Shown in pieces: positions 2,405-55,275 of a stretch of 64,000 bases of DNA (position 1 is the first letter of the stretch; each line of letters begins with the position of its first letter). The position numbers and the translations under genes are program-made. This DNA comes from a virus, in IMG/VR virus record IMGVR_UViG_2917587430_000001, positions 25,228 through 89,227 of that record, one strand, 5' to 3'. The notes below the pieces were generated by a model, which was not told the DNA's origin, made no database searches, and was given only the letters and a program-made list of their open reading frames with translations.

Positions 2405-3106
2405 ATGGGAATTTGGCAAGACTTTGTAGGAACAACAGAAGCCTTATTCAGAGTTGGTCTGACAGGTTTCTCGCTCAAAAACAACGGTGGCAACGTCGTT
2501 GTCCGCAACTCAGGCGACACAGCCGATGCAGAACTGACAGCTTCTCAGGTCAAAGTGAGTGGCGACAGCATTGTAATCAACAGTGACGCAGCTAATGCTG
2601 GCAACGATCGGAGCCTCACCTTGCAACGGGCAACTTCAGGTATGACGGGAGCCTTAACAGTCATCCTTCCAGCACTGACAGGAGCTGACGGACAGGTGTT
2701 GGCTAAGAAGGCCGGCTCGCCTGCTGGAGTGCTTGAGCTTGAACTCATCTCAGCAGCTAACACGGCTTTGAACACTGCCAATGACACGACAGCTTTGGCG
2801 TTTGGTTCTGCTGCAACCGTGCCTATGTTCACGTTGCCAGCGAACGCAATTATTCAAAGCGTCGAAACGGTTGTAGACGTGACGTTCAACGGCACCCCTT
2901 CAATCAGCGTTGGCATCAGCGGCAACGCTAGCAAGTATGTTGCTTCGACTCAAGTTGATCTCAAGGCAGCTGCAAGAACATCGTTTGTGGTTCACCCCGC
3001 CATTGCTCCAAGCGCTAACCCTGAGAACCTTGAGATTGCCTACTCAGCCGGGGGAGCAACCGCTGGAGCGGCACGGGTGATTGTCGCTTACACAATCCCA
3101 GCCTAG
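2405..3106 (+). CDS. Putative virion/fibre protein
   Basis: Ala/Thr/Gly/Ser-rich; N-terminus resembles that of the next ORF. Confidence 0.55.
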   Translation: MGIWQDFVGTTEALFRVGLTGFSLKNNGGNVVVRNSGDTADAELTASQVKVSGDSIVINSDAANAGNDRSLTLQRATSGMTGALTVILPALTGADGQVLAKKAGSPAGVLELELISAANTALNTANDTTALAFGSAATVPMFTLPANAIIQSVETVVDVTFNGTPSISVGISGNASKYVASTQVDLKAAARTSFVVHPAIAPSANPENLEIAYSAGGATAGAARVIVAYTIPA

Positions 3107-26111: not shown

Positions 26112-26372
26112 TCATGCACGACTGTTCCACCAATCTATTAGAGATTTTGGATCATCCATGCTGTTTGCAACATTGCATGAACAACAGAAGATTGAATAGA
26201 GATGATATGGCTGGCTAACTTCCACTCCCTTGAGATGAATAGAGGTTTTGATGTCGTCACTTCCACAGAACGGGCAGAGCTTCAGTGTCTCGGATTCAAG
26301 AAGTTCATACAAAACATCGTCCTGCTGGGATATCGATTCAAAAGGAATTTCTCTGCTCATAATCACTCCCAT
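26112..26372 (-). CDS. Lar-family restriction alleviation protein
   Basis: LKLCPFCGS...IFCCSCN...LIDWWNSRA. Confidence 0.8.
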   Translation of the reverse strand: MGVIMSREIPFESISQQDDVLYELLESETLKLCPFCGSDDIKTSIHLKGVEVSQPYHLYSIFCCSCNVANSMDDPKSLIDWWNSRA

Positions 26373-27074: not shown

Positions 27075-27149
27075 GATGATGAAAGCTCCATCGCTAGGTG
27101 GTATACCCCTGCTCTTCCGCCAAGAATCAGCAGGGGTTAAACATTTGAA

Positions 27150-27698
27150 TTAATGAACGTAAACGCCAACAAGCTGCTGCATGAACTGCTGTTGGCGTTT
27201 TGCCTTGCTGCCCATCCAGAGGCTATTGAGCTGGGTTTCAGCCTGAGTCTTCTTGCCTTCCCAGTTGAAATATTCAGTGACCGAGTTGAGCAGTCCCCAG
27301 GCTGTGTTGTAGGCACTGTTGAGTGAAGCGCCTTTCGCTTCACCCTGGAAAAGTCTCAGGCAGGTCTGGATAAGCGCAGGCTGGTTCTGCACTGGTTTAG
27401 TCGGATCACCAAAGGCGCTAATTAGGTGCAAGGTTGCCTCTTCGACGGTGATAATCGTCTCTGCCAGTTGCTCTGACTGAGTTTCAAACTCACGGAAGTT
27501 GCTTTTGGCAGACTCCAATACCTCGGTGACGCGATCGCTATTCCACTCGTTAACGTGGGAGATCACTTTGCCATTCAAGCGAACCGGGACGGTCAGACCA
27601 TTGCCGCAGATGTTTCGCAGGGTCATCAGGTCAACGCGATGACCTTTGCCTTGCTCATGGAATCCAGTCAGCAGAATTTTGCCGTAGACCTCTGCCAG
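27150..27698 (-). pseudogene. 5'-truncated DUF932/DUF945-like phage protein
   Basis: Open frame LAEVYGKILLTGFH...LRNICGNGL...TAWGLLNSVTEY...LWMG; the N-terminal half is missing, directly downstream of tnpB. Confidence 0.65.
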
Positions 27699-27723
27699 CT
27701 AGCTACCTTCCCAAAAGATTGGA

Positions 27724-29589
27724 TCACTCCGACTCCCAAAGTTCAAGCTGTATATGGTCTTCTGGCAGCCTCTTCAAGGATCTCCTTTTGGGACGGTCTA
27801 CCCCGGTTTTTGCTAACTGTGAGCTGACTACAGGTGTCACCAGTTCACTTGGGTCAGAGGTTGCAAGCACCCCCATACCTCCCCTTGCCTGCGTCTTCCC
27901 ACTCGTAGCGGGGTTTCGGTCAGTTCTAGGGGCAACAGAGTCAGCAACAACGGCTGATTCCTGCAAGTCCGAAGACTTGTACCCTTTGGCTGAATCCTCA
28001 GCAGGTTCACAGACGGCAGAACCGTCAGGCGTAGGCATACGCAAGCCTTGTCGAATTGCCGGGGCAAGTCGCAAGGTTCTGTTTTGGGCGGGCTTAATTG
28101 CGCCACACGCCCCGTAGAGGACAGAGCTAAGGAAGTTGCAACCTCCTACTCCATCCCGATCGCCCAACCACCCACAGCCACCTTTACGAGGATTGCAGTA
28201 GTAGACGCGGTTGCGTGGCTTGTGCCTGCGACCGCAGTTTGGGCAAACTTGTGACGACCGTGCTTCGCTGGCTGTCTCTGTTCCTTCGCCGCCAGCTAAC
28301 AGCAACTTCTCGTCTAAATATTTTACTTGGGTTGGCATTTCCCAAAGGTTGTTTCGACCAACTTGCTTGATCCGACGCTTGCCCTTCTTCCTGGTCTTTG
28401 GCAGTGTCTTCAAGTCACCTACATAAACCTTGCCAACTTTATTTTCAACGCACCAATTAACGGCTGCACGGGTGACGCAATGGTTAGCGTAGGTCAATCT
28501 GACCCGGTAATAATCAGCCGCTTTATGCTGAGAGCGAAGCAACCGCATTTCTCTGCGGCTCCGCTTCTTTAGTCCTAAGTCCTTACGCCGTTGCCGAATA
28601 ATCCGAAACGCATATTTGATATCAGATCCCCGGCGCTTCAACCCCTGACGCTGCCGTTCGTTGTCCCGCTCCTGCAATTCTCGATAGGTTGCTTTTTCGT
28701 CAGGCGATAGGTATTGACGGATTTGACCCTTTAAAACCCGCGATCGCTTGCGGTTGATGCCTCGATAACGCCCATCGCGTTCGCGCTTGAGGGCACAGAT
28801 ATTCTTGCCGCTGATAGTCGCTGTAGTGCCATCCTTCAGAGCCAACACCATTGCTCGTTTCTGCCCAAAGTCAACGGCTGCAACTTCAATTAGTTCAGGG
28901 TTTGGTTCAACTGGTAATTTACGGGTGATGTGCAGGCAGAACCGACCACTGCGAGAGCGAGTAATCTTTACATCACCATCAATCGAAATGTTTAGAAGCT
29001 CTGGTACGCGCAGCTTCAACACGTAGGGCTTTGCGCCTAGAATCAGGCGATCGCCCGAGCGTTTCACCAATTGATTTGTAAAAAACAGAGTGTGCAGACC
29101 TTTGTACCGCCTGGGAAGTTGAGCGTTTGTATCCCCGTTCTTTCGGTGGGTGAAATAGCTAGCAATATTCGCTTCAAAGTCCTGAGTTAATACCACTTTT
29201 GACTGAGCCGGAATTCCATAGTCAGGTTTGGCATTCTTCTCGGTAGCAACGACTAACCGCTCCTTCCCTTTATCCTTTCCCTGTTTAGCGGGTTTGTTGA
29301 CTAACTGCCGAGGGTAAATACTTGATTGCTGAGTGATTAGAGTAATAATCAACTCATCTGCCCAACCTTTACGCCGAATATCAACGTAAGGATCAACCTC
29401 CCAGGCAGGCTGATCCGGATACTCTTCTCTAGCTTGTTTATAGGCACTTTGCTTGTAAGCCAAATGATCGATCAGCAGGTTGTAGATCATCGCACTCGAT
29501 CGCATCATCCCGTACAGCAGTTGCCGCTGCTGTGGTTTAGGATGAAACTCGATTTTTAACGTGCGGGTTTGATAGTGCTGGCTGGTCAT
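27724..29589 (-). CDS. tnpB: TnpB-family RNA-guided nuclease (621 aa)
   Basis: AAVDFG (RuvC-I), YVGDL, SEARSSQVCPNCG...C...CGW zinc finger, DRD (RuvC-III). Confidence 0.85.
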   Translation of the reverse strand: MTSQHYQTRTLKIEFHPKPQQRQLLYGMMRSSAMIYNLLIDHLAYKQSAYKQAREEYPDQPAWEVDPYVDIRRKGWADELIITLITQQSSIYPRQLVNKPAKQGKDKGKERLVVATEKNAKPDYGIPAQSKVVLTQDFEANIASYFTHRKNGDTNAQLPRRYKGLHTLFFTNQLVKRSGDRLILGAKPYVLKLRVPELLNISIDGDVKITRSRSGRFCLHITRKLPVEPNPELIEVAAVDFGQKRAMVLALKDGTTATISGKNICALKRERDGRYRGINRKRSRVLKGQIRQYLSPDEKATYRELQERDNERQRQGLKRRGSDIKYAFRIIRQRRKDLGLKKRSRREMRLLRSQHKAADYYRVRLTYANHCVTRAAVNWCVENKVGKVYVGDLKTLPKTRKKGKRRIKQVGRNNLWEMPTQVKYLDEKLLLAGGEGTETASEARSSQVCPNCGRRHKPRNRVYYCNPRKGGCGWLGDRDGVGGCNFLSSVLYGACGAIKPAQNRTLRLAPAIRQGLRMPTPDGSAVCEPAEDSAKGYKSSDLQESAVVADSVAPRTDRNPATSGKTQARGGMGVLATSDPSELVTPVVSSQLAKTGVDRPKRRSLKRLPEDHIQLELWESE

Positions 29590-29628
29590 ATCTGCAAAAG
29601 TGCATGGAGTGCTGAATGTTAGTTGCTG

Positions 29629-29814
29629 CTACTTGGTAGCGAGTCGCCGTTGTGCTTGCAGTTCTCGAATGAAGTCAGGAAATCGCTGGGCTAGCACGAC
29701 GTTCTCAATCAAGAAGCGGCGATCGTCATTTACTGCTAGCCCTATTTCCGCAACTAAGTTGGTCAAATCTTCGATGCTCATTGCTTCGAGCTGTTCAATC
29801 GTGTAGATGGTCAT
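29629..29814 (-). CDS. Small helical (HeH/Rho-N-like) protein, paralogue of 40724..40909
   Basis: YT..QLEAM...L..LV...DRRFLIENV..QRFPD is shared between the two. Confidence 0.65.
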   Translation of the reverse strand: MTIYTIEQLEAMSIEDLTNLVAEIGLAVNDDRRFLIENVVLAQRFPDFIRELQAQRRLATK

Positions 29815-29894
29815 TTCAGAAACCTAGTTAAGTTGAAATACTTCTAAATCAGGAAGAGGCAATCGCTTACGGGTGTCTTTTCAAGACCGCCCTC

Positions 29895-30479
29895 TCAACT
29901 CCCCTTCTCCTTTACATGCCTGGAAACCAGTGCTCTCTTCACGCCTGGGTCATAGAGATACAGCCCTAATCCAAATCGACAGCAGGCACGACGAAACGCT
30001 TGAGACTCGCTGTTGGTATTGCTGCTACCAAACTGCGTTCCCTCTAGCGCCTCATCACCTGTGCTAGCGCGAGAGATTGGTCCCTCTTCACAAAGCAGCG
30101 TAATTTCATAGCCCAACACATAGCGGCTGCCCTGCGGCATGTGAATTAACTGCCCAGTCCATCCAGGGCTGATGTAATCCAAAATTAGGTTGCAATCATA
30201 CCAATGCAGGTATGGAATGTAATTCAACTTTCCTGACTTTTTATCCTTCTTCTCAAGCCAGTTAATAAACGCCCAAGGAAGCGGCTTTGACAAGTCAGCT
30301 AGAACGTCAATGAACGGGCGACGAAACCCTAAAGTTTGCCCCTGAGTAATCAACCGTCGCAGATCAGAGCGAGTTTCAGGGATGACAGGTAAAACTTTGG
30401 ACGTGGTTTGAGATGTGGTTTGCATGGCGGTTGAGATAAGGCGATCGCCCCTTGGTTGGATAGATGGGCGATCGCTCAT
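29895..30479 (-). CDS. Rad52/Rad22-family single-strand annealing protein
   Basis: YLHW...ILDYISPGW...SRASTG...NSESQAFRRACCRFGLGLYLYD. Confidence 0.85.
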   Translation of the reverse strand: MSDRPSIQPRGDRLISTAMQTTSQTTSKVLPVIPETRSDLRRLITQGQTLGFRRPFIDVLADLSKPLPWAFINWLEKKDKKSGKLNYIPYLHWYDCNLILDYISPGWTGQLIHMPQGSRYVLGYEITLLCEEGPISRASTGDEALEGTQFGSSNTNSESQAFRRACCRFGLGLYLYDPGVKRALVSRHVKEKGS

Positions 30480-33635: not shown

Positions 33636-34469
33636 ATGTCCAAATGGTATGAAAAGCTGGTACAGGAAACCTATCAAGCCCTTCTCGATCAAGAATCACA
33701 CATCAAGAACATAGTTGTGCAGCACGATGTCAAGTTGACTGGCAAAAGTGGTGCTTCTCACCAGATTGATGTCTATTGGGAATTCAGGATAGCCGATACC
33801 ATCTATCGGACATGTATTGAGTGCAGGAATTATACATCAAACATCAAAAAAAGTAGAGTTGTAGAATTCAAAGGTATTTTAGACGATATAGGTAACGCGA
33901 ACGGAATTATTGTAACTAGGGTCGGTTTTCAAGAAGGGGCTTTAACCTATGCCGAACATCACGGGGTTCGACTACTTCTTATTAATCCCGTGCTGCAAAG
34001 AATAGACGTGAACGTGCATATGGTTATTCCCCAGATAAGTAACATAGGATTTTTGTTCGATTCTTCTCACGCAAAGTTCGTTTTAGAAGCAGCAGGAGTT
34101 GATACCACAAGTATCTTATTGGAGTTAAACGCTTTAGCTAAAGACATTTATCTGTATGATGCCAATGGAAATAAAACACGTAATTTGTCGACAGTGTTAT
34201 CACAGCCTATAGGTAAAGTTGGTCAAATTGTTGTCGATCTTGATAATGAATATCTGGAAACATCGCATGGATTGATAAAACTCAATTCAATTAGTTTTGA
34301 GCGACAGGAAGAGATGGTCGAGAATAAAATTACAATTGGTGGTGGTGAAGATGTTGCTAAGACATTAATCCAAGATGTTCTCGAAAATACATCCAAGTAT
34401 CTTTTCAAGGATGGTGCTGTAGGCAGCGAATCTCGAAGAGACAAATTGTTGCCGCAACAGAACAGATAA
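33636..34469 (+). CDS. Gene cassette: Mrr-cat-like PD-(D/E)xK restriction endonuclease
   Basis: YEKLV...HQIDV...IECRNY...VVEF...GIIVTRVGFQEGA. Confidence 0.85.
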   Translation: MSKWYEKLVQETYQALLDQESHIKNIVVQHDVKLTGKSGASHQIDVYWEFRIADTIYRTCIECRNYTSNIKKSRVVEFKGILDDIGNANGIIVTRVGFQEGALTYAEHHGVRLLLINPVLQRIDVNVHMVIPQISNIGFLFDSSHAKFVLEAAGVDTTSILLELNALAKDIYLYDANGNKTRNLSTVLSQPIGKVGQIVVDLDNEYLETSHGLIKLNSISFERQEEMVENKITIGGGEDVAKTLIQDVLENTSKYLFKDGAVGSESRRDKLLPQQNR

Positions 34470-35254
34470 TCGGGTCGCCGGAGGGTTTTCCCCTCCAGCT
34501 CCCACAGCACCCCGCATGCGGCTCCGCACGGGGCGCTTCCTCAAAGAGGTTTAGACGGTTTGGTTCCGAAGAACCAATGTCCAGGGCTGGTTACGCAATT
34601 AAGCGCCGACTATTTAGCTCCCCCATCCGGGTTCATCGCCACGTCGAGCTTTACGACTCCTCCCCGCTCTCTGAAGTTCGGCCCTTCACCGTGTCTCATC
34701 CATTACGATGAGCGTTTGGCTACTATGGCTTCTGCTGACTTCTGCTCAATTACACAGGGCGTTTCCATACCTGTGCGCTGTCTGCTTTTCCTTAGGGTTC
34801 TGTGGCTACCTAACCGTTTCCAGTTAGACCTCAATCAGACTCCCGTAGAAGCTTAGACCGCCATTTGAGCAGATCTCCCCGGATAAGAACGTGAACTGTC
34901 CCTGCACAACCGCGTCATTTACTGCGTTCCCTGAACCAGGGGGCTTCGTTGTGTTGTGCCAACTTGCCCTAGGACTATCTCAGCCTTCTATGACGTTTCT
35001 GTTCGTCGGCTCACAGGTTTGCCTCCAGCTTCCTTCAGACATTCCCTCGCGAGTTTGCCCTTGCTCTTGGCTAGTGGTTGTCGTTACTCGGCTCCAATAC
35101 TTTCGAGCATTTGAACGCTGGTTCCACCACAGAGGACTTTCACCTCATAAGTTCACGCCCATGCCGGGCGTACACAACCCGATTGGAGCGGGCTACCGAG
35201 AGATATTGGTGGTGATGAAAAGGTTTTAATAGCCGCTCAATCGGAACGTTGTGC
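34464..35254 (+). other. attC site interrupted by the intron
   Basis: Splicing out restores AGATAAC-AACCCGATTGGAGCGGGCTA...TAGCCGCTCAATCGGAAC-GTTGTGC. Confidence 0.85.
34469..35173 (-). mobile_element. ORF-less group IIC-attC intron (705 nt)
   Basis: 5' GTACGCCCGGCATGGGCGTG...GAGGTGAAAGTCCTC; domain V/VI GAAGCGCCCCGTGCGGAGCCGCATGCGGGGTGCTG...GACCCGAT; target TTGT/TA; no RT ORF. Confidence 0.85.
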
Positions 35255-38720: not shown

Positions 38721-39818
38721 CTAAAAGATTGAACCCTGCCAAACTTCCTCAGGGTCGTTCTTTCCCTTGCGTCTGCGCTTCTTGATGGGTTCAAATCGCC
38801 ACTGGTTCTCTGCGTCGTGTTCTGTCCCTGCCAGATATTCAGCCGCAGCGGGATTCTGATCGGCGGTCGCAGTCATGGAGTCCGAGGTAGCTTCACTGTC
38901 GCCATGAAGCAGTTCAGAATCTAGGAACGGCAGTGGCTTGACCAGCCAGGGAGCGTAGAGATAGCCGTTAACTAGGGCAGCTTTAATTACCGTGTCGTTG
39001 ATGTCCTGCCCATACAGCCTCAGTGAGTAGTTGGAGGCAGTCAGCAGCAAGCGACCGGTACCCAAGCATGGATCGCATACCGTCTCCAGTCGCGAATCGT
39101 GGCGACCCCTTGCGGGTATCTCTGCGAGATCGCCAGAGATGACATCATGCATCAACACCTGGGTCATCAGGATGCAGACGGGCATGGGAGTTGGGTAAAA
39201 CCCTGAGCGCTTGCCGAAATGGTTGATTGCCAGGATGTCTCCCAAATAGTCGTGAGGGTAGGCAGTCAGCAGATTCAGATTGAACATCTGATAGAGCCTC
39301 ATGCTGGCTCCGCTACATCCGCTCGGTTCATCGGGCAGGTCATAGCCTGGGTGACCAAACCCAAACAGTAGCCAGTCGAGGAAATAGTTCATGTATGTCC
39401 AGCTCGACCAACCTTGCCAACCCCCCGAACCGCAATTAGTAACGAGGTCTAAGCAGCGCTCCAAATGCTTGTGCCCTTGCTGGTCAAATAAATGGCGACT
39501 GTGTTCATCTGTTGCCCATTCGATTTTGGGAATCGGGCGATCGCCTAGTTTCTGAGTCTCCATCAACTCAACCCAGTAGACCCAGCGCTGCCACGTCAGT
39601 TCATCGGCTCGAAGTAGGTAGGGAAGGAGCCAGCCCCGTTCCAAGTTGCGCTGTAAGTTGGGGTCAAGCTTGTATTTCTGCCGCGCTTTAAGCTGCTCCC
39701 TAAGTTCTGCGCGAAACCATGACAATCTATCCCGTGACTCTTCCTGAGCCGGGATGCTATCGCTGTTCATTATTGAAGTTGCCTTAAATCTTGTTGCTTG
39801 ATAGGTGGCGATCGCCAT
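38721..39818 (-). CDS. N-6 DNA methylase-like protein (SAM-binding part only)
   Basis: GFYPTP...VCDPCLGTGRLL...LYGQDIN; no NPPY/F motif visible. Confidence 0.7.
   Translation of the reverse strand: MAIATYQATRFKATSIMNSDSIPAQEESRDRLSWFRAELREQLKARQKYKLDPNLQRNLERGWLLPYLLRADELTWQRWVYWVELMETQKLGDRPIPKIEWATDEHSRHLFDQQGHKHLERCLDLVTNCGSGGWQGWSSWTYMNYFLDWLLFGFGHPGYDLPDEPSGCSGASMRLYQMFNLNLLTAYPHDYLGDILAINHFGKRSGFYPTPMPVCILMTQVLMHDVISGDLAEIPARGRHDSRLETVCDPCLGTGRLLLTASNYSLRLYGQDINDTVIKAALVNGYLYAPWLVKPLPFLDSELLHGDSEATSDSMTATADQNPAAAEYLAGTEHDAENQWRFEPIKKRRRKGKNDPEEVWQGSIF
39105..39128 (-). repeat. 24-nt SDR5-like element inserted in a HIP1 site (in frame within the CDS)
   Basis: GCGAT[CTCGCAGAGATACCCGCAAGGGGT]CGC. 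Confidence 0.7.
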
Positions 39819-39921
39819 CCAGAGCGCAGCGCTTCACTCTGGTGGGTTCATGTGGCTAGGCACAACGTCTCGCTTGCGATCAAAGGCTTTACACCACCCT
39901 TGATGGCGATCGCCAAACTTG

Positions 39922-40677
39922 TTAAGCGGACATCCGAGCTTCAGCAGTCTCTACGGTGTCTGCCTTCTTGAAGCTAAATGCCAGGTTGTAGAGTTCAGTC
40001 CAGTTCAGTTCTCCAGCATCGTAGGCAGTCCGGATTTTGCTGGAAGCCTCATACAACTCATACGCCTTAGCAATCACTTTGGTGTAGTGAGCCGACTTGC
40101 CCACAGTTTCCCCGGCTGCTTTGGTGTCACCGTTGCAGCGGACTACTGCCTCATAAACTTCTCTGGCTTGAGCCAACTTCTCTGCCGGGTCAGTAATCCG
40201 AGGTGTTCCGGTTCGGGGGGTGCCACCTCTGCGAGTTTTGGCAGGTTGGGCAATGGCGATCGCGGTCAGCAATTGCTTGAAGGCTCCAAAATTCTCTAGC
40301 AGGTAAGTTGCTTCGGCACAGCTCCCTACATTGGCATTCTCATCCAGGTAGAGGATCAAGCGTTGTTCATAGGTCAAGTCAGACTTTTGCTCCTCAGCCT
40401 CCAGCTCCGGTTCGGGGGGTGCTACCTCTTCAACTTCGACTTCAACAGCAGCTTCAGAATCATCATCTGTAGCAATTGCCATTTGCTCAAAGTCTTCTTC
40501 ATCGTCAGATTCAACCTGATCTTCAACCTGCCCTTGAGCAAACAGAATCCAGTCAATTAACTGTGCTTTCGTGTCGCTTGGCTCAAACTCAATCTCCAGT
40601 CCAGCAGCAATGTTCTGGAGTTTGGGTTTGGTCATTTCACGGGTGGTCAGTTGGTCGCGAGTGTAGGTGGTAGTCAT
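39922..40677 (-). CDS. Hypothetical protein with N-terminal HeH/Rho-N-like domain, acidic linker and C-terminal HTH-like region
   Basis: YTRDQL...KPKLQNIA...DTKAQLIDWIL. Confidence 0.6.
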   Translation of the reverse strand: MTTTYTRDQLTTREMTKPKLQNIAAGLEIEFEPSDTKAQLIDWILFAQGQVEDQVESDDEEDFEQMAIATDDDSEAAVEVEVEEVAPPEPELEAEEQKSDLTYEQRLILYLDENANVGSCAEATYLLENFGAFKQLLTAIAIAQPAKTRRGGTPRTGTPRITDPAEKLAQAREVYEAVVRCNGDTKAAGETVGKSAHYTKVIAKAYELYEASSKIRTAYDAGELNWTELYNLAFSFKKADTVETAEARMSA

Positions 40678-54974: not shown

Positions 54975-55085
54975 TTCTACTGTGTTACTGATTGATACGA
55001 CAAACTCGCGAGATAATACCTAGTTTTTCAATAACTAATGCAGAATAACTCTCCCAGTTCCGGTATTACCCAGCATTTATCCTTG

Positions 55086-55275
55086 ATGGCACAACATCCT
55101 TCCCCTTGCCTATTAGGTCAGGTACAGCAATCTATCCAACTCAAGCATTTCAGCTTAAAGACTGAGAAATCCTATATTGACTACATCCGCGATTTCATCC
55201 TGTTTCATTACAGCGGCACCTTGAAGGAATGAGGACAGATGGAACTCAAGCCTACTTGGAACTAGCTAGAAGGTT
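55086..55275 (+). pseudogene. intI: Integron integrase 5' remnant, frameshifted and truncated
   Basis: LLGQVQQSIQLKHFSLKTEKSYIDYIRDFILFH, then in a shifted frame RHLEGMRTDGTQAYLELA, matching the IntI N-terminal SAM-like domain. Confidence 0.8.

Follow-up and report, generated by a model that had tools for sequence, protein, structure and literature searches.

Organization of the effector locus

The stretch of DNA analyzed here (the window) comprises 64,000 nucleotides (nt), positions 25228-89227 of a 113.6-kb virus record in IMG/VR (IMGVR_UViG_2917587430_000001); coordinates without a label are those of the window. We concentrated on a minus-strand open reading frame (ORF) whose 621-amino-acid (aa) product, the effector, has the fold of TnpB and Cas12f proteins, and on the DNA at its 3' end, where a predicted scaffold RNA gene, a single repeat of the kind found in clustered regularly interspaced short palindromic repeat (CRISPR) arrays, and the 3' part of a DUF932 gene meet. 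The effector gene and the scaffold are intact, one repeat is present, and DUF932 sequence stands in the guide position. The features of the locus are as follows.

27724..29589, minus strand: effector ORF, 621 aa; TnpB/Cas12f fold, with residues 1-511 folded and 512-621 disordered
27692..28113, minus strand: predicted scaffold RNA gene of ~420 nt, resembling a trans-activating CRISPR RNA (tracrRNA) or omegaRNA; spans codons 493-621 and the stop codon and ends 32 nt past it
27983..28112, minus strand: module A, four covarying hairpins that form the 5' portion of the scaffold; two copies elsewhere in the record
27775..27829, minus strand: anti-repeat region in the ORF tail, paired by RNAduplex with the locus's own repeat
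27692..27727, minus strand: single CRISPR-type repeat, 36 nt; overlaps the stop codon, ends in CTGGCAG and is homologous to repeat 1 of the relatives
27657..27691, minus strand: guide (spacer) position, 35 nt; DUF932 codons ~147-158, where relatives have spacer 1
27150..27698, minus strand: DUF932 3' fragment; 182 open codons, first ATG at 27626, ~146 N-terminal codons missing
29590..29628, minus strand: gap of 39 nt between a 61-aa gene and the effector start, with no room for a transposon left end

Fold and predicted active site of the effector

Against the Pfam Cas12f1-like TNB domain the effector scored 29 bits (cut-off 26.3), and its top PADLOC match was a Cas12f model at 62 bits; the match to NCBIfam guided_TnpB was weak (48 bits, under the model cut-off of 100), and the PADLOC Cas12u4 model did not match the protein. 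A search of PDB sequences with the single effector sequence returned nothing, and a profile search was needed; the best profile match was RdCas12n (9j09) at 31 bits, covering the zinc finger and RuvC-III only. An AlphaFold2 model built from the family alignment had a mean predicted local distance difference test (pLDDT) score of 76, and Foldseek assigned it the TnpB/Cas12f fold at 12-16% identity. AsCas12f was matched with an E-value of 2e-14, and the further matches included ISFba1 TnpB, Cas12m2, Fanzor2, ISDra2 TnpB and LaTranC. The pLDDT fell below 50 in an Arg/Lys-rich loop (397-409) and in the tail (512-621), which correspond to the Arg-rich insertion and the ~100-aa low-complexity tail described in an earlier reading made from the letters alone (hereafter the sequence-only reading). 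That reading had also given the ORF as 621 aa long and had proposed a structure prediction of the active site; the ORF call is the same, and the residues concerned are listed here.

28870..28872, minus strand: codon of D240, the RuvC-I Asp (AAVDFG); invariant in the 20 family members and the 30 nearest TnpBs examined
28417..28419, minus strand: codon of G391 (VYVGDL), Gly at the canonical RuvC-II Glu site; invariant in the family, and Gly also in the nearest TnpBs
28264..28266, minus strand: codon of E442 (SEARSSQ), the predicted relocated RuvC-II Glu; immediately follows the beta strand of aa 436-441, ahead of the zinc finger
28174..28245, minus strand: zinc finger CxxC...CxxxxxxC (C449, C452, C465, C472); invariant cysteines, Pfam TNB domain
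28153..28155, minus strand: codon of D479, the RuvC-III Asp (GDRDGVG, with D477); invariant

G391 was assigned to the canonical RuvC-II Glu position because, in the profile search of PDB sequences, VYVGDL aligns with the 'IQMEDL' strand that carries the catalytic Glu of AsCas12f. When the 30 nearest TnpBs were aligned with the family, all had Gly at the canonical site, an invariant Glu in 'sE.yTSqtCP' at the position of E442, which is likewise invariant in the family, and 'HRDxVGAxNI' at RuvC-III, so that the conserved Asp of DRD is the second one only. The nearest ~400-aa database relatives also carry 'vxIGDxxG'. We therefore predict an active site of D240, E442 and D479, because E442 and D479, unlike E417 and D477, are invariant across the family members and the 30 nearest TnpBs alike. 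E417 was considered as the relocated Glu and rejected, since its invariance within the family does not extend to the nearest TnpBs; D477 shows the same pattern. In the RuvC-II-rearranged (RIIr) clades of TnpB, the RuvC-II Glu is replaced by Gly with a compensating Glu further downstream (PMC10691335), and the predicted catalytic site of the effector matches this already known rearrangement. The four positions singled out in the sequence-only reading (the Asp of AAVDFG, the Gly of YVGDL, the Glu of SEARSS and the Asp of DRD) are thus present and invariant in the 20-member alignment, and its suggestion of a relocated RuvC-II Glu agrees with both the invariance of E442 and the published RIIr description.

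Homologs are associated with CRISPR arrays

We recovered 25 full-length homologs. An exhaustive profile search of 1.84 billion representative proteins yielded ~15 full-length clusters, followed by a sharp drop and then by hundreds of ordinary ~400-aa TnpBs. A CRISPR array lies directly 3' of the homologous gene in 11 relatives (L005, L009, L010, L012, L013, L015, L016, L017, L018, L022 and L023), with repeat 1 overlapping the stop codon; these arrays contain 2-14 repeats, each 36-37 nt long with TGGCAG, TGCAAG or TGAAAG at the end, and their spacers, 33-43 nt long, are unique. Alignment of the 3' regions of homologous loci identified the last ~36 nt around the stop codon as the first repeat of the array, and two more contigs break off immediately behind the ORF, as is common in assemblies that run into an array. 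Those family members with an identifiable source are all cyanobacterial, and most of the loci resemble prophage or phage DNA, one adjoining Mu-type portal and tail genes and several coming just after small helix-turn-helix (HTH) genes. In the relatives, the start codon of the effector overlaps or nearly abuts the upstream gene. The gene is single-copy, with one full copy in the source record (G000) and one each in the cyanobacterial genomes G002, G003 and G004.

Because the relatives carry CRISPR arrays, the family is, on sequence criteria, Cas12-like and CRISPR-associated, and its features, gene neighborhood and copy number included, do not fit a transposing insertion sequence (IS) element. 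The sequence-only reading had called the protein a TnpB. The part of that name which denotes a TnpB-fold nuclease stands, but the part which denotes a transposon component is not supported, since arrays accompany 11 relatives, the gene is single-copy and no transposon ends were seen.

Spacers of the relatives matched nothing in all fetched loci and the source record, nor in 8 relatives of G003, and those of three arrays found no match among GenBank phages. Among 200 relatives of G002, the sole match was a self-match: apart from one mismatch, spacer 10 of the Floridaenema array is identical to a stretch on a different contig of that assembly (G002:C259:18811-18844 = L031:1501-1534), within a 174-aa ORF; the matched stretch represents either a self-target or a resident mobile element.

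A structured RNA is encoded in the ORF tail

RNAalifold was applied to ten loci, over the final ~430 nt of the ORF together with repeat 1, and predicted 82 pairs, 54 of them with compensatory changes. Paired cells amounted to 93%, against a mean of 75% and a maximum of 77% in column-preserving permutations and 33-45% when the 3' partners were shifted by 1-3 columns, and the number of compensatory pairs (54) likewise exceeded that in permutations (mean 27, maximum 38) and with shifted partners (13-25). These values are somewhat inflated, since the alignment that was scored is also the one that yielded the structure, but the margin is large. No Rfam family matches the scaffold, nor the other loci.

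Differences between homologs in the tail are distributed over the codon positions as 33/32/35%, with 75 synonymous and 374 non-synonymous changes, whereas in the protein body 55% of the differences fall at codon position 3 and synonymous changes outnumber non-synonymous ones. This lack of codon periodicity indicates that the tail is constrained as RNA, not as protein; its frame is nonetheless open to the first repeat in every homolog. The "low-complexity tail" of the effector is therefore, to judge from these substitution and pairing patterns, the DNA of a structured RNA that is translated into a disordered tail.

Within the tail, we located at each locus the segment that pairs most strongly with the locus's own repeat (RNAduplex, -26 to -38 kcal/mol across loci). 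In 7 of the 10 folded loci, 30-63 nt separate this segment from repeat 1 downstream of it; the distances in L012, L018 and L009 are 8, 243 and 696 nt, respectively. The sequence of this segment varies between loci in step with that of the repeat, and the pairs 27819-27812 : 27703-27696 covary; by its sequence, it is an anti-repeat of the tracrRNA type. The family layout of the 3' end of the scaffold is accordingly anti-repeat, ~50-nt linker, and first repeat on the stop codon. The sequence-only reading had cited as known that an omegaRNA overlaps the 3' end of tnpB genes, and an omegaRNA-like scaffold in this position is supported here by the covariation; it ends sharply at 27692. A promoter and terminator scan of 27100-29900 gave nothing on the minus strand.

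The single repeat abuts the 3' part of a DUF932 gene

The ORF downstream of the effector matches the DUF932 profile at positions 85-226 of 227, and the frame read from 27698 matches positions 66-225. This fragment, a truncated member of PF06067 / TIGR03299 (full domain ~325 aa), aligns to residues 147-325 of a 326-aa intact homolog with 75% identity (75-77% to intact proteins) and represents the 3' 56% of the gene, so that the N-terminal half is missing, as the sequence-only reading had noted. No other DUF932 sequence occurs in the record.

Three intact DUF932 genes, located on one IMG/VR contig, one metagenome contig and the contig of the closest homolog, show DNA homology that starts at 27692, which is also the final base of the repeat. 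Contigs of relatives in a soil metagenome (~94% identity) match as far as 27692 and then diverge, and we conclude from this divergence that the DUF932 fusion is specific to this record and that a true boundary, scaffold-guide or repeat-spacer, lies at 27692. The same boundary is common to an effector-less paralog, the intact DUF932 alleles and the metagenome relatives. The sequence-only reading had placed a DUF932-derived guide near 27700 and had proposed a search for uninterrupted alleles; the position holds, and the three intact genes are such alleles. A degenerate DUF932 search returned only two intact alleles (71-72% DNA identity). The intact alleles carry ...GGTGAT 5' of the junction. Repeat copies number three in the whole record, all of them solitary.

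The sequence-only reading had the effector gene "beheading" DUF932, but the N-terminal half of DUF932 is not upstream of the effector; a three-gene block (31229-29627) is found there instead. The 61-aa gene next to the effector, which ends at 29629 and thus accounts for the 39-bp gap already reported in the earlier reading, is conserved and has a paralog elsewhere in the record. The block as a whole has an 89% paralog at record 109097-110694. There, with no effector body in between, the block runs straight into an anti-repeat, linker and repeat with 78% identity to those of the window, and the crossover maps to a short stretch of similarity around TAGCA. The Y1 TnpA domain (PF01797) had no match in the 113.6-kb record, in keeping with the earlier remark that no TnpA is nearby, a serine-recombinase TnpA not having been specifically searched. 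No Cas1 was found in the whole record, and no transposon ends or hairpins were seen at the effector.

At the closest intact locus (L028), DUF932 lies between two genes whose homologs are adjacent in the window. The latter, at 38724-40374 on the minus strand, encode a 245-aa protein and a 346-aa N6_Mtase-like protein and stand side by side, separated by a ~150-nt HIP1-containing spacer and without DUF932.

A proposed collapsed array with one guide, and its alternatives

We consider it rather likely, with real room for doubt, that the locus encodes a miniature type V Cas12-like nuclease from the RIIr TnpB clade, with its scaffold inside the ORF and its array collapsed to one DUF932 guide. Judged by sequence, it is a RuvC-II-rearranged, phage-associated system of Cas12n/TranC grade in a collapsed, single-guide state, and we read the effector locus as a type V / TranC-like system that has reverted to an omegaRNA-like single guide. 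In this scheme the predicted nuclease, type V and 'TranC/Cas12n-grade', would be an RNA-guided DNA cutter derived from a TnpB clade with the Glu-to-Gly RuvC-II change, and its scaffold would be encoded in the last ~130 codons of its own ORF. The array of this record would have collapsed to a single repeat, with the 3' part of DUF932 filling the spacer position, leaving a natural single-guide (omegaRNA-like) unit whose guide would read DUF932 codons 147-158. We infer that a DUF932-derived spacer recombined with a DUF932 gene to give the fusion. The ribonucleoprotein would then cut DUF932 alleles of rival mobile elements that bear a protospacer-adjacent motif (PAM), and would spare its own locus because the end of the repeat occupies the place of the PAM.

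A breakpoint exactly at the repeat-spacer boundary is the expected product of recombination between a spacer and DUF932, and the repeat-DUF932 fusion probably arose by recombination through a DUF932-matching spacer. Whether the join is a true recombination or an assembly artifact, either implies a first spacer that matched DUF932. Four sequencing runs yielded partial contigs only (~90-96% identical), none of which reached the DUF932 side, and these are uninformative on the join at 27692.

Several observations weigh against this reading. There is no second repeat at the effector locus, which makes repeat-to-repeat processing of a precursor CRISPR RNA (crRNA) impossible, and the reading has to take for granted that a lone guide can mature. 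The closest intact DUF932 alleles share only 71-74% DNA identity with the fragment, a 24-nt search of viral and metagenome contigs for exact targets of the guide was negative, and the proposed ancestral DUF932 spacer was never observed. The record is a mosaic of paralogous segments with 78-91% identity, and the join could therefore be an assembly path taken through spacer-protospacer identity. The sole trace of RNA is one 158-nt metatranscriptome contig of a relative, which lies on the scaffold (27911-28068) and is not proof of transcription. Finally, the only protospacer found for the family is the one-mismatch self-match described above, with the 5' flank AAAAAATC, from which no PAM can be called.

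A function for the single fixed guide is a more tentative matter. It might serve as an allele-specific weapon or a homing-like element against rivals that carry DUF932, and pieces of the scaffold might have been re-used as 5' leaders, possibly bound by the same protein; we offer this combination as speculation.

The alternative that survives best is that the locus is a decaying or accidental remnant, in which an unrelated array deletion or an assembly artifact left a repeat that yields no useful guide, and the adjacency of DUF932 has no function. We regard this as unlikely, though it deserves to be taken seriously. The repeat is single, the record contains numerous paralogous blocks and may in part be a chimera, and the effector-less copy of anti-repeat and repeat, together with the scattered scaffold pieces, shows a system that is being broken up in this genome; the homologs of the genes that flank DUF932 in L028 also stand side by side at 38.7-40.4 kb without it. 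However, the effector ORF is uninterrupted and lacks none of its catalytic and zinc residues, all scaffold helices pair in the window copy, and the DUF932 fragment keeps its 182 open codons and its 75-77% identity to intact proteins. Moreover, the breakpoint falls on the exact repeat-spacer boundary, where by our rough estimate a random deletion would end in 1 in 36-70 cases.

A further possibility, which develops the sequence-only reading, is that the gene is a mobile, TnpA-less TnpB of the IS200/IS605 type inserted in DUF932, whose omegaRNA takes its guide from the right flank and which homes into intact alleles. This we find improbable. The sharp scaffold-guide boundary, with sequence of the flanking gene in the guide position, speaks for it, the rearranged site is shared by the nearest ~400-aa relatives, which are TnpBs of ordinary size, and the intact alleles have ...TGAT immediately 5' of the junction, which recalls the transposon-adjacent motif (TAM) of ISDra2, TTGAT. 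The left side of the locus argues otherwise: in place of the missing half of DUF932 stands the 61-aa gene, the 89% paralog of which is joined to the same RNA 3' module, and in the relatives the start codon overlaps the upstream gene. There is, in addition, no TnpA, no ends or hairpins were seen, the gene is present once per genome, and 11 relatives have CRISPR arrays, not flank-derived guides.

Least credible of all is an RNA-guided regulator like TldR or Cas12m that would bind but not cut DNA or RNA, with the scaffold copies in 5' leaders among its targets, for although the two module A copies keep their hairpins by compensatory changes and place AAGGAA before an ATG (one of them opening a methyltransferase ORF), and although several relatives adjoin small HTH genes, the D/E/D triad and the zinc finger are invariant across the family, while known nuclease-dead relatives lose both (PMC10691335), and the multi-spacer arrays of the relatives, with their unique spacers, are typical of interference.

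Relationship to known systems

Returning to the collapsed-array reading, the closest parallels are Cas12n (V-U4/V-N) and TranC, the latter described as transposon-CRISPR intermediates between TnpB and Cas12 (bioRxiv 10.64898/2026.03.27.714800). Like them, the family combines an RuvC effector of TnpB to intermediate size with an array directly downstream and no adaptation genes, and LaTranC is among the fold matches of the effector. In Cas12n, the disordered C-terminus of the ORF overlaps the tracrRNA (PMC12216341); the family similarly has a tracrRNA over the disordered C-terminal part of the ORF, with an anti-repeat that covaries with the repeat. The effector differs from Cas12n in lacking significant sequence membership, with 12-16% identity to solved structures, and the family differs from both Cas12n and TranC in that its RuvC-II is rearranged to Gly plus a downstream Glu, its first repeat overlaps the stop codon, its members with an identifiable source are all cyanobacterial, most of its loci resemble prophage or phage DNA, and only one repeat remains here. 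Whereas the RdCas12n guide consists of a ~170 nt tracrRNA and a 40 nt crRNA (PMC12216341), the scaffold of this family is ~420 nt long.

The RIIr TnpBs (e.g., RIIr-5; Altae-Tran et al. 2023, PMC10691335) share the Gly at the canonical Glu position and the compensating Glu before the zinc finger. The proteins of this family, in contrast, are ~200 aa longer, with expansions in the N-terminal/REC region, a long helical insert (262-382) and the Arg/Lys loop (397-409), and they are single-copy and CRISPR-associated. With the TnpB-omegaRNA systems of IS200/IS605 elements (ISDra2, ISFba1), the locus has in common the fold, a scaffold that overlaps the 3' end of the gene and, in this record, the use of DNA past a sharp scaffold end as the guide position; unlike them, the gene has neither Y1 TnpA nor visible transposon ends, is single-copy, and has relatives that use arrays.

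In the Sigma-TnpB lineage, a Cas12f array shrank and an omegaRNA re-emerged (PMC10691335). The present locus resembles that outcome, in that a remnant repeat fused to a tracr-derived scaffold gives a single fixed guide, but Sigma-TnpB is nuclease-dead and regulatory, while this effector keeps its catalytic residues, and the event in the window appears recent and specific to this record. The family also differs from dead regulators of the TldR type, as D240, E442 and D479 are invariant within it.

If the assignments hold, the family would add a rare lineage (~15 clusters) to the independent transitions from TnpB to Cas12, starting from a RuvC-II-rearranged clade. A tracrRNA still within the ORF, together with a first repeat on the stop codon, would mark a very early stage of the splitting of the guide RNA, and the copy in the window would represent a change in the reverse direction, in which an array gives way to one guide set by the neighboring DNA while the active site is kept. 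Were it functional, it would be a natural one-guide nuclease aimed at a widespread gene of mobile elements. The "low-complexity tail" of ORFs such as this should be annotated as an RNA gene, and the folded core of ~510 aa, for which the scaffold is defined, is a candidate for a compact editor whose catalytic arrangement is unusual.

Scaffold and repeat copies elsewhere in the record

Two stand-alone copies of module A, the first 130 nt of the scaffold, were found with 88-91% identity, both of them outside the window, at L004:1508-1660 (record 2788-2940, plus strand) and L002:1484-1638 (record 106928-107082, minus strand). Both begin at the nucleotide where the first helix of the RNA starts, keep the hairpins through compensatory changes, and end in AAGGAA followed by ATG, which in L004 opens a DNA methyltransferase ORF and in L002 an 11-codon remnant. 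A soil-metagenome relative shares the module A junction of the L004 type, and the sequence abutting the L002 copy (record 106839-106952) is a 90% copy of window 55038-55151.

The two other solitary repeats also lie outside the window. One, at L003:1510-1640 (record 110686-110816), has its own anti-repeat and linker but no effector gene, and this effector-less unit retains a 14-bp anti-repeat:repeat stem; the other is a bare repeat at L004:1369-1404 (record 2649-2684), on the opposite strand to the module A copy and 103 nt away from it. Each leads into unique sequence that has no match elsewhere in the record. The anti-repeat of the effector locus pairs with these two repeats at -23.5 and -26.3 kcal/mol, compared with -15 to -27 for unrelated repeats, and use of the solo repeat units in trans is thus not supported either way by pairing energies that are no better than those of unrelated repeats.

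Beyond the L003 repeat, a 363-aa RRXRR protein (L003:1910-3001, record ~111086-112177; Pfam E 1e-37) has an IsrB-like look with no HNH match. It starts 269 nt past the solitary repeat, approximately the space needed by an upstream omegaRNA, and a second element of the OMEGA type may abut the end of this repeat.

The record has many internal paralogous blocks with 78-91% identity; examples relate record 6.5-14.5 kb to 80.7-88.7 kb in direct orientation and record 52.9-57.6 kb to 106.9-110.8 kb in inverted orientation. From this pattern of similarity, the source record would be either a mosaic of related elements or partly chimeric.

The co-directional block around the effector also includes a restriction-alleviation gene of the Lar type (26112-26372, minus strand; Pfam E 3e-8) and a gene for a 194-aa protein with a weak Mgm101/Rad52-like match (29895-30479, minus strand; E 1e-3). 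Farther upstream, three Rfam group II intron matches (D1-D4 and domain V/VI models) scored above gathering thresholds at 34469-35056 on the minus strand.

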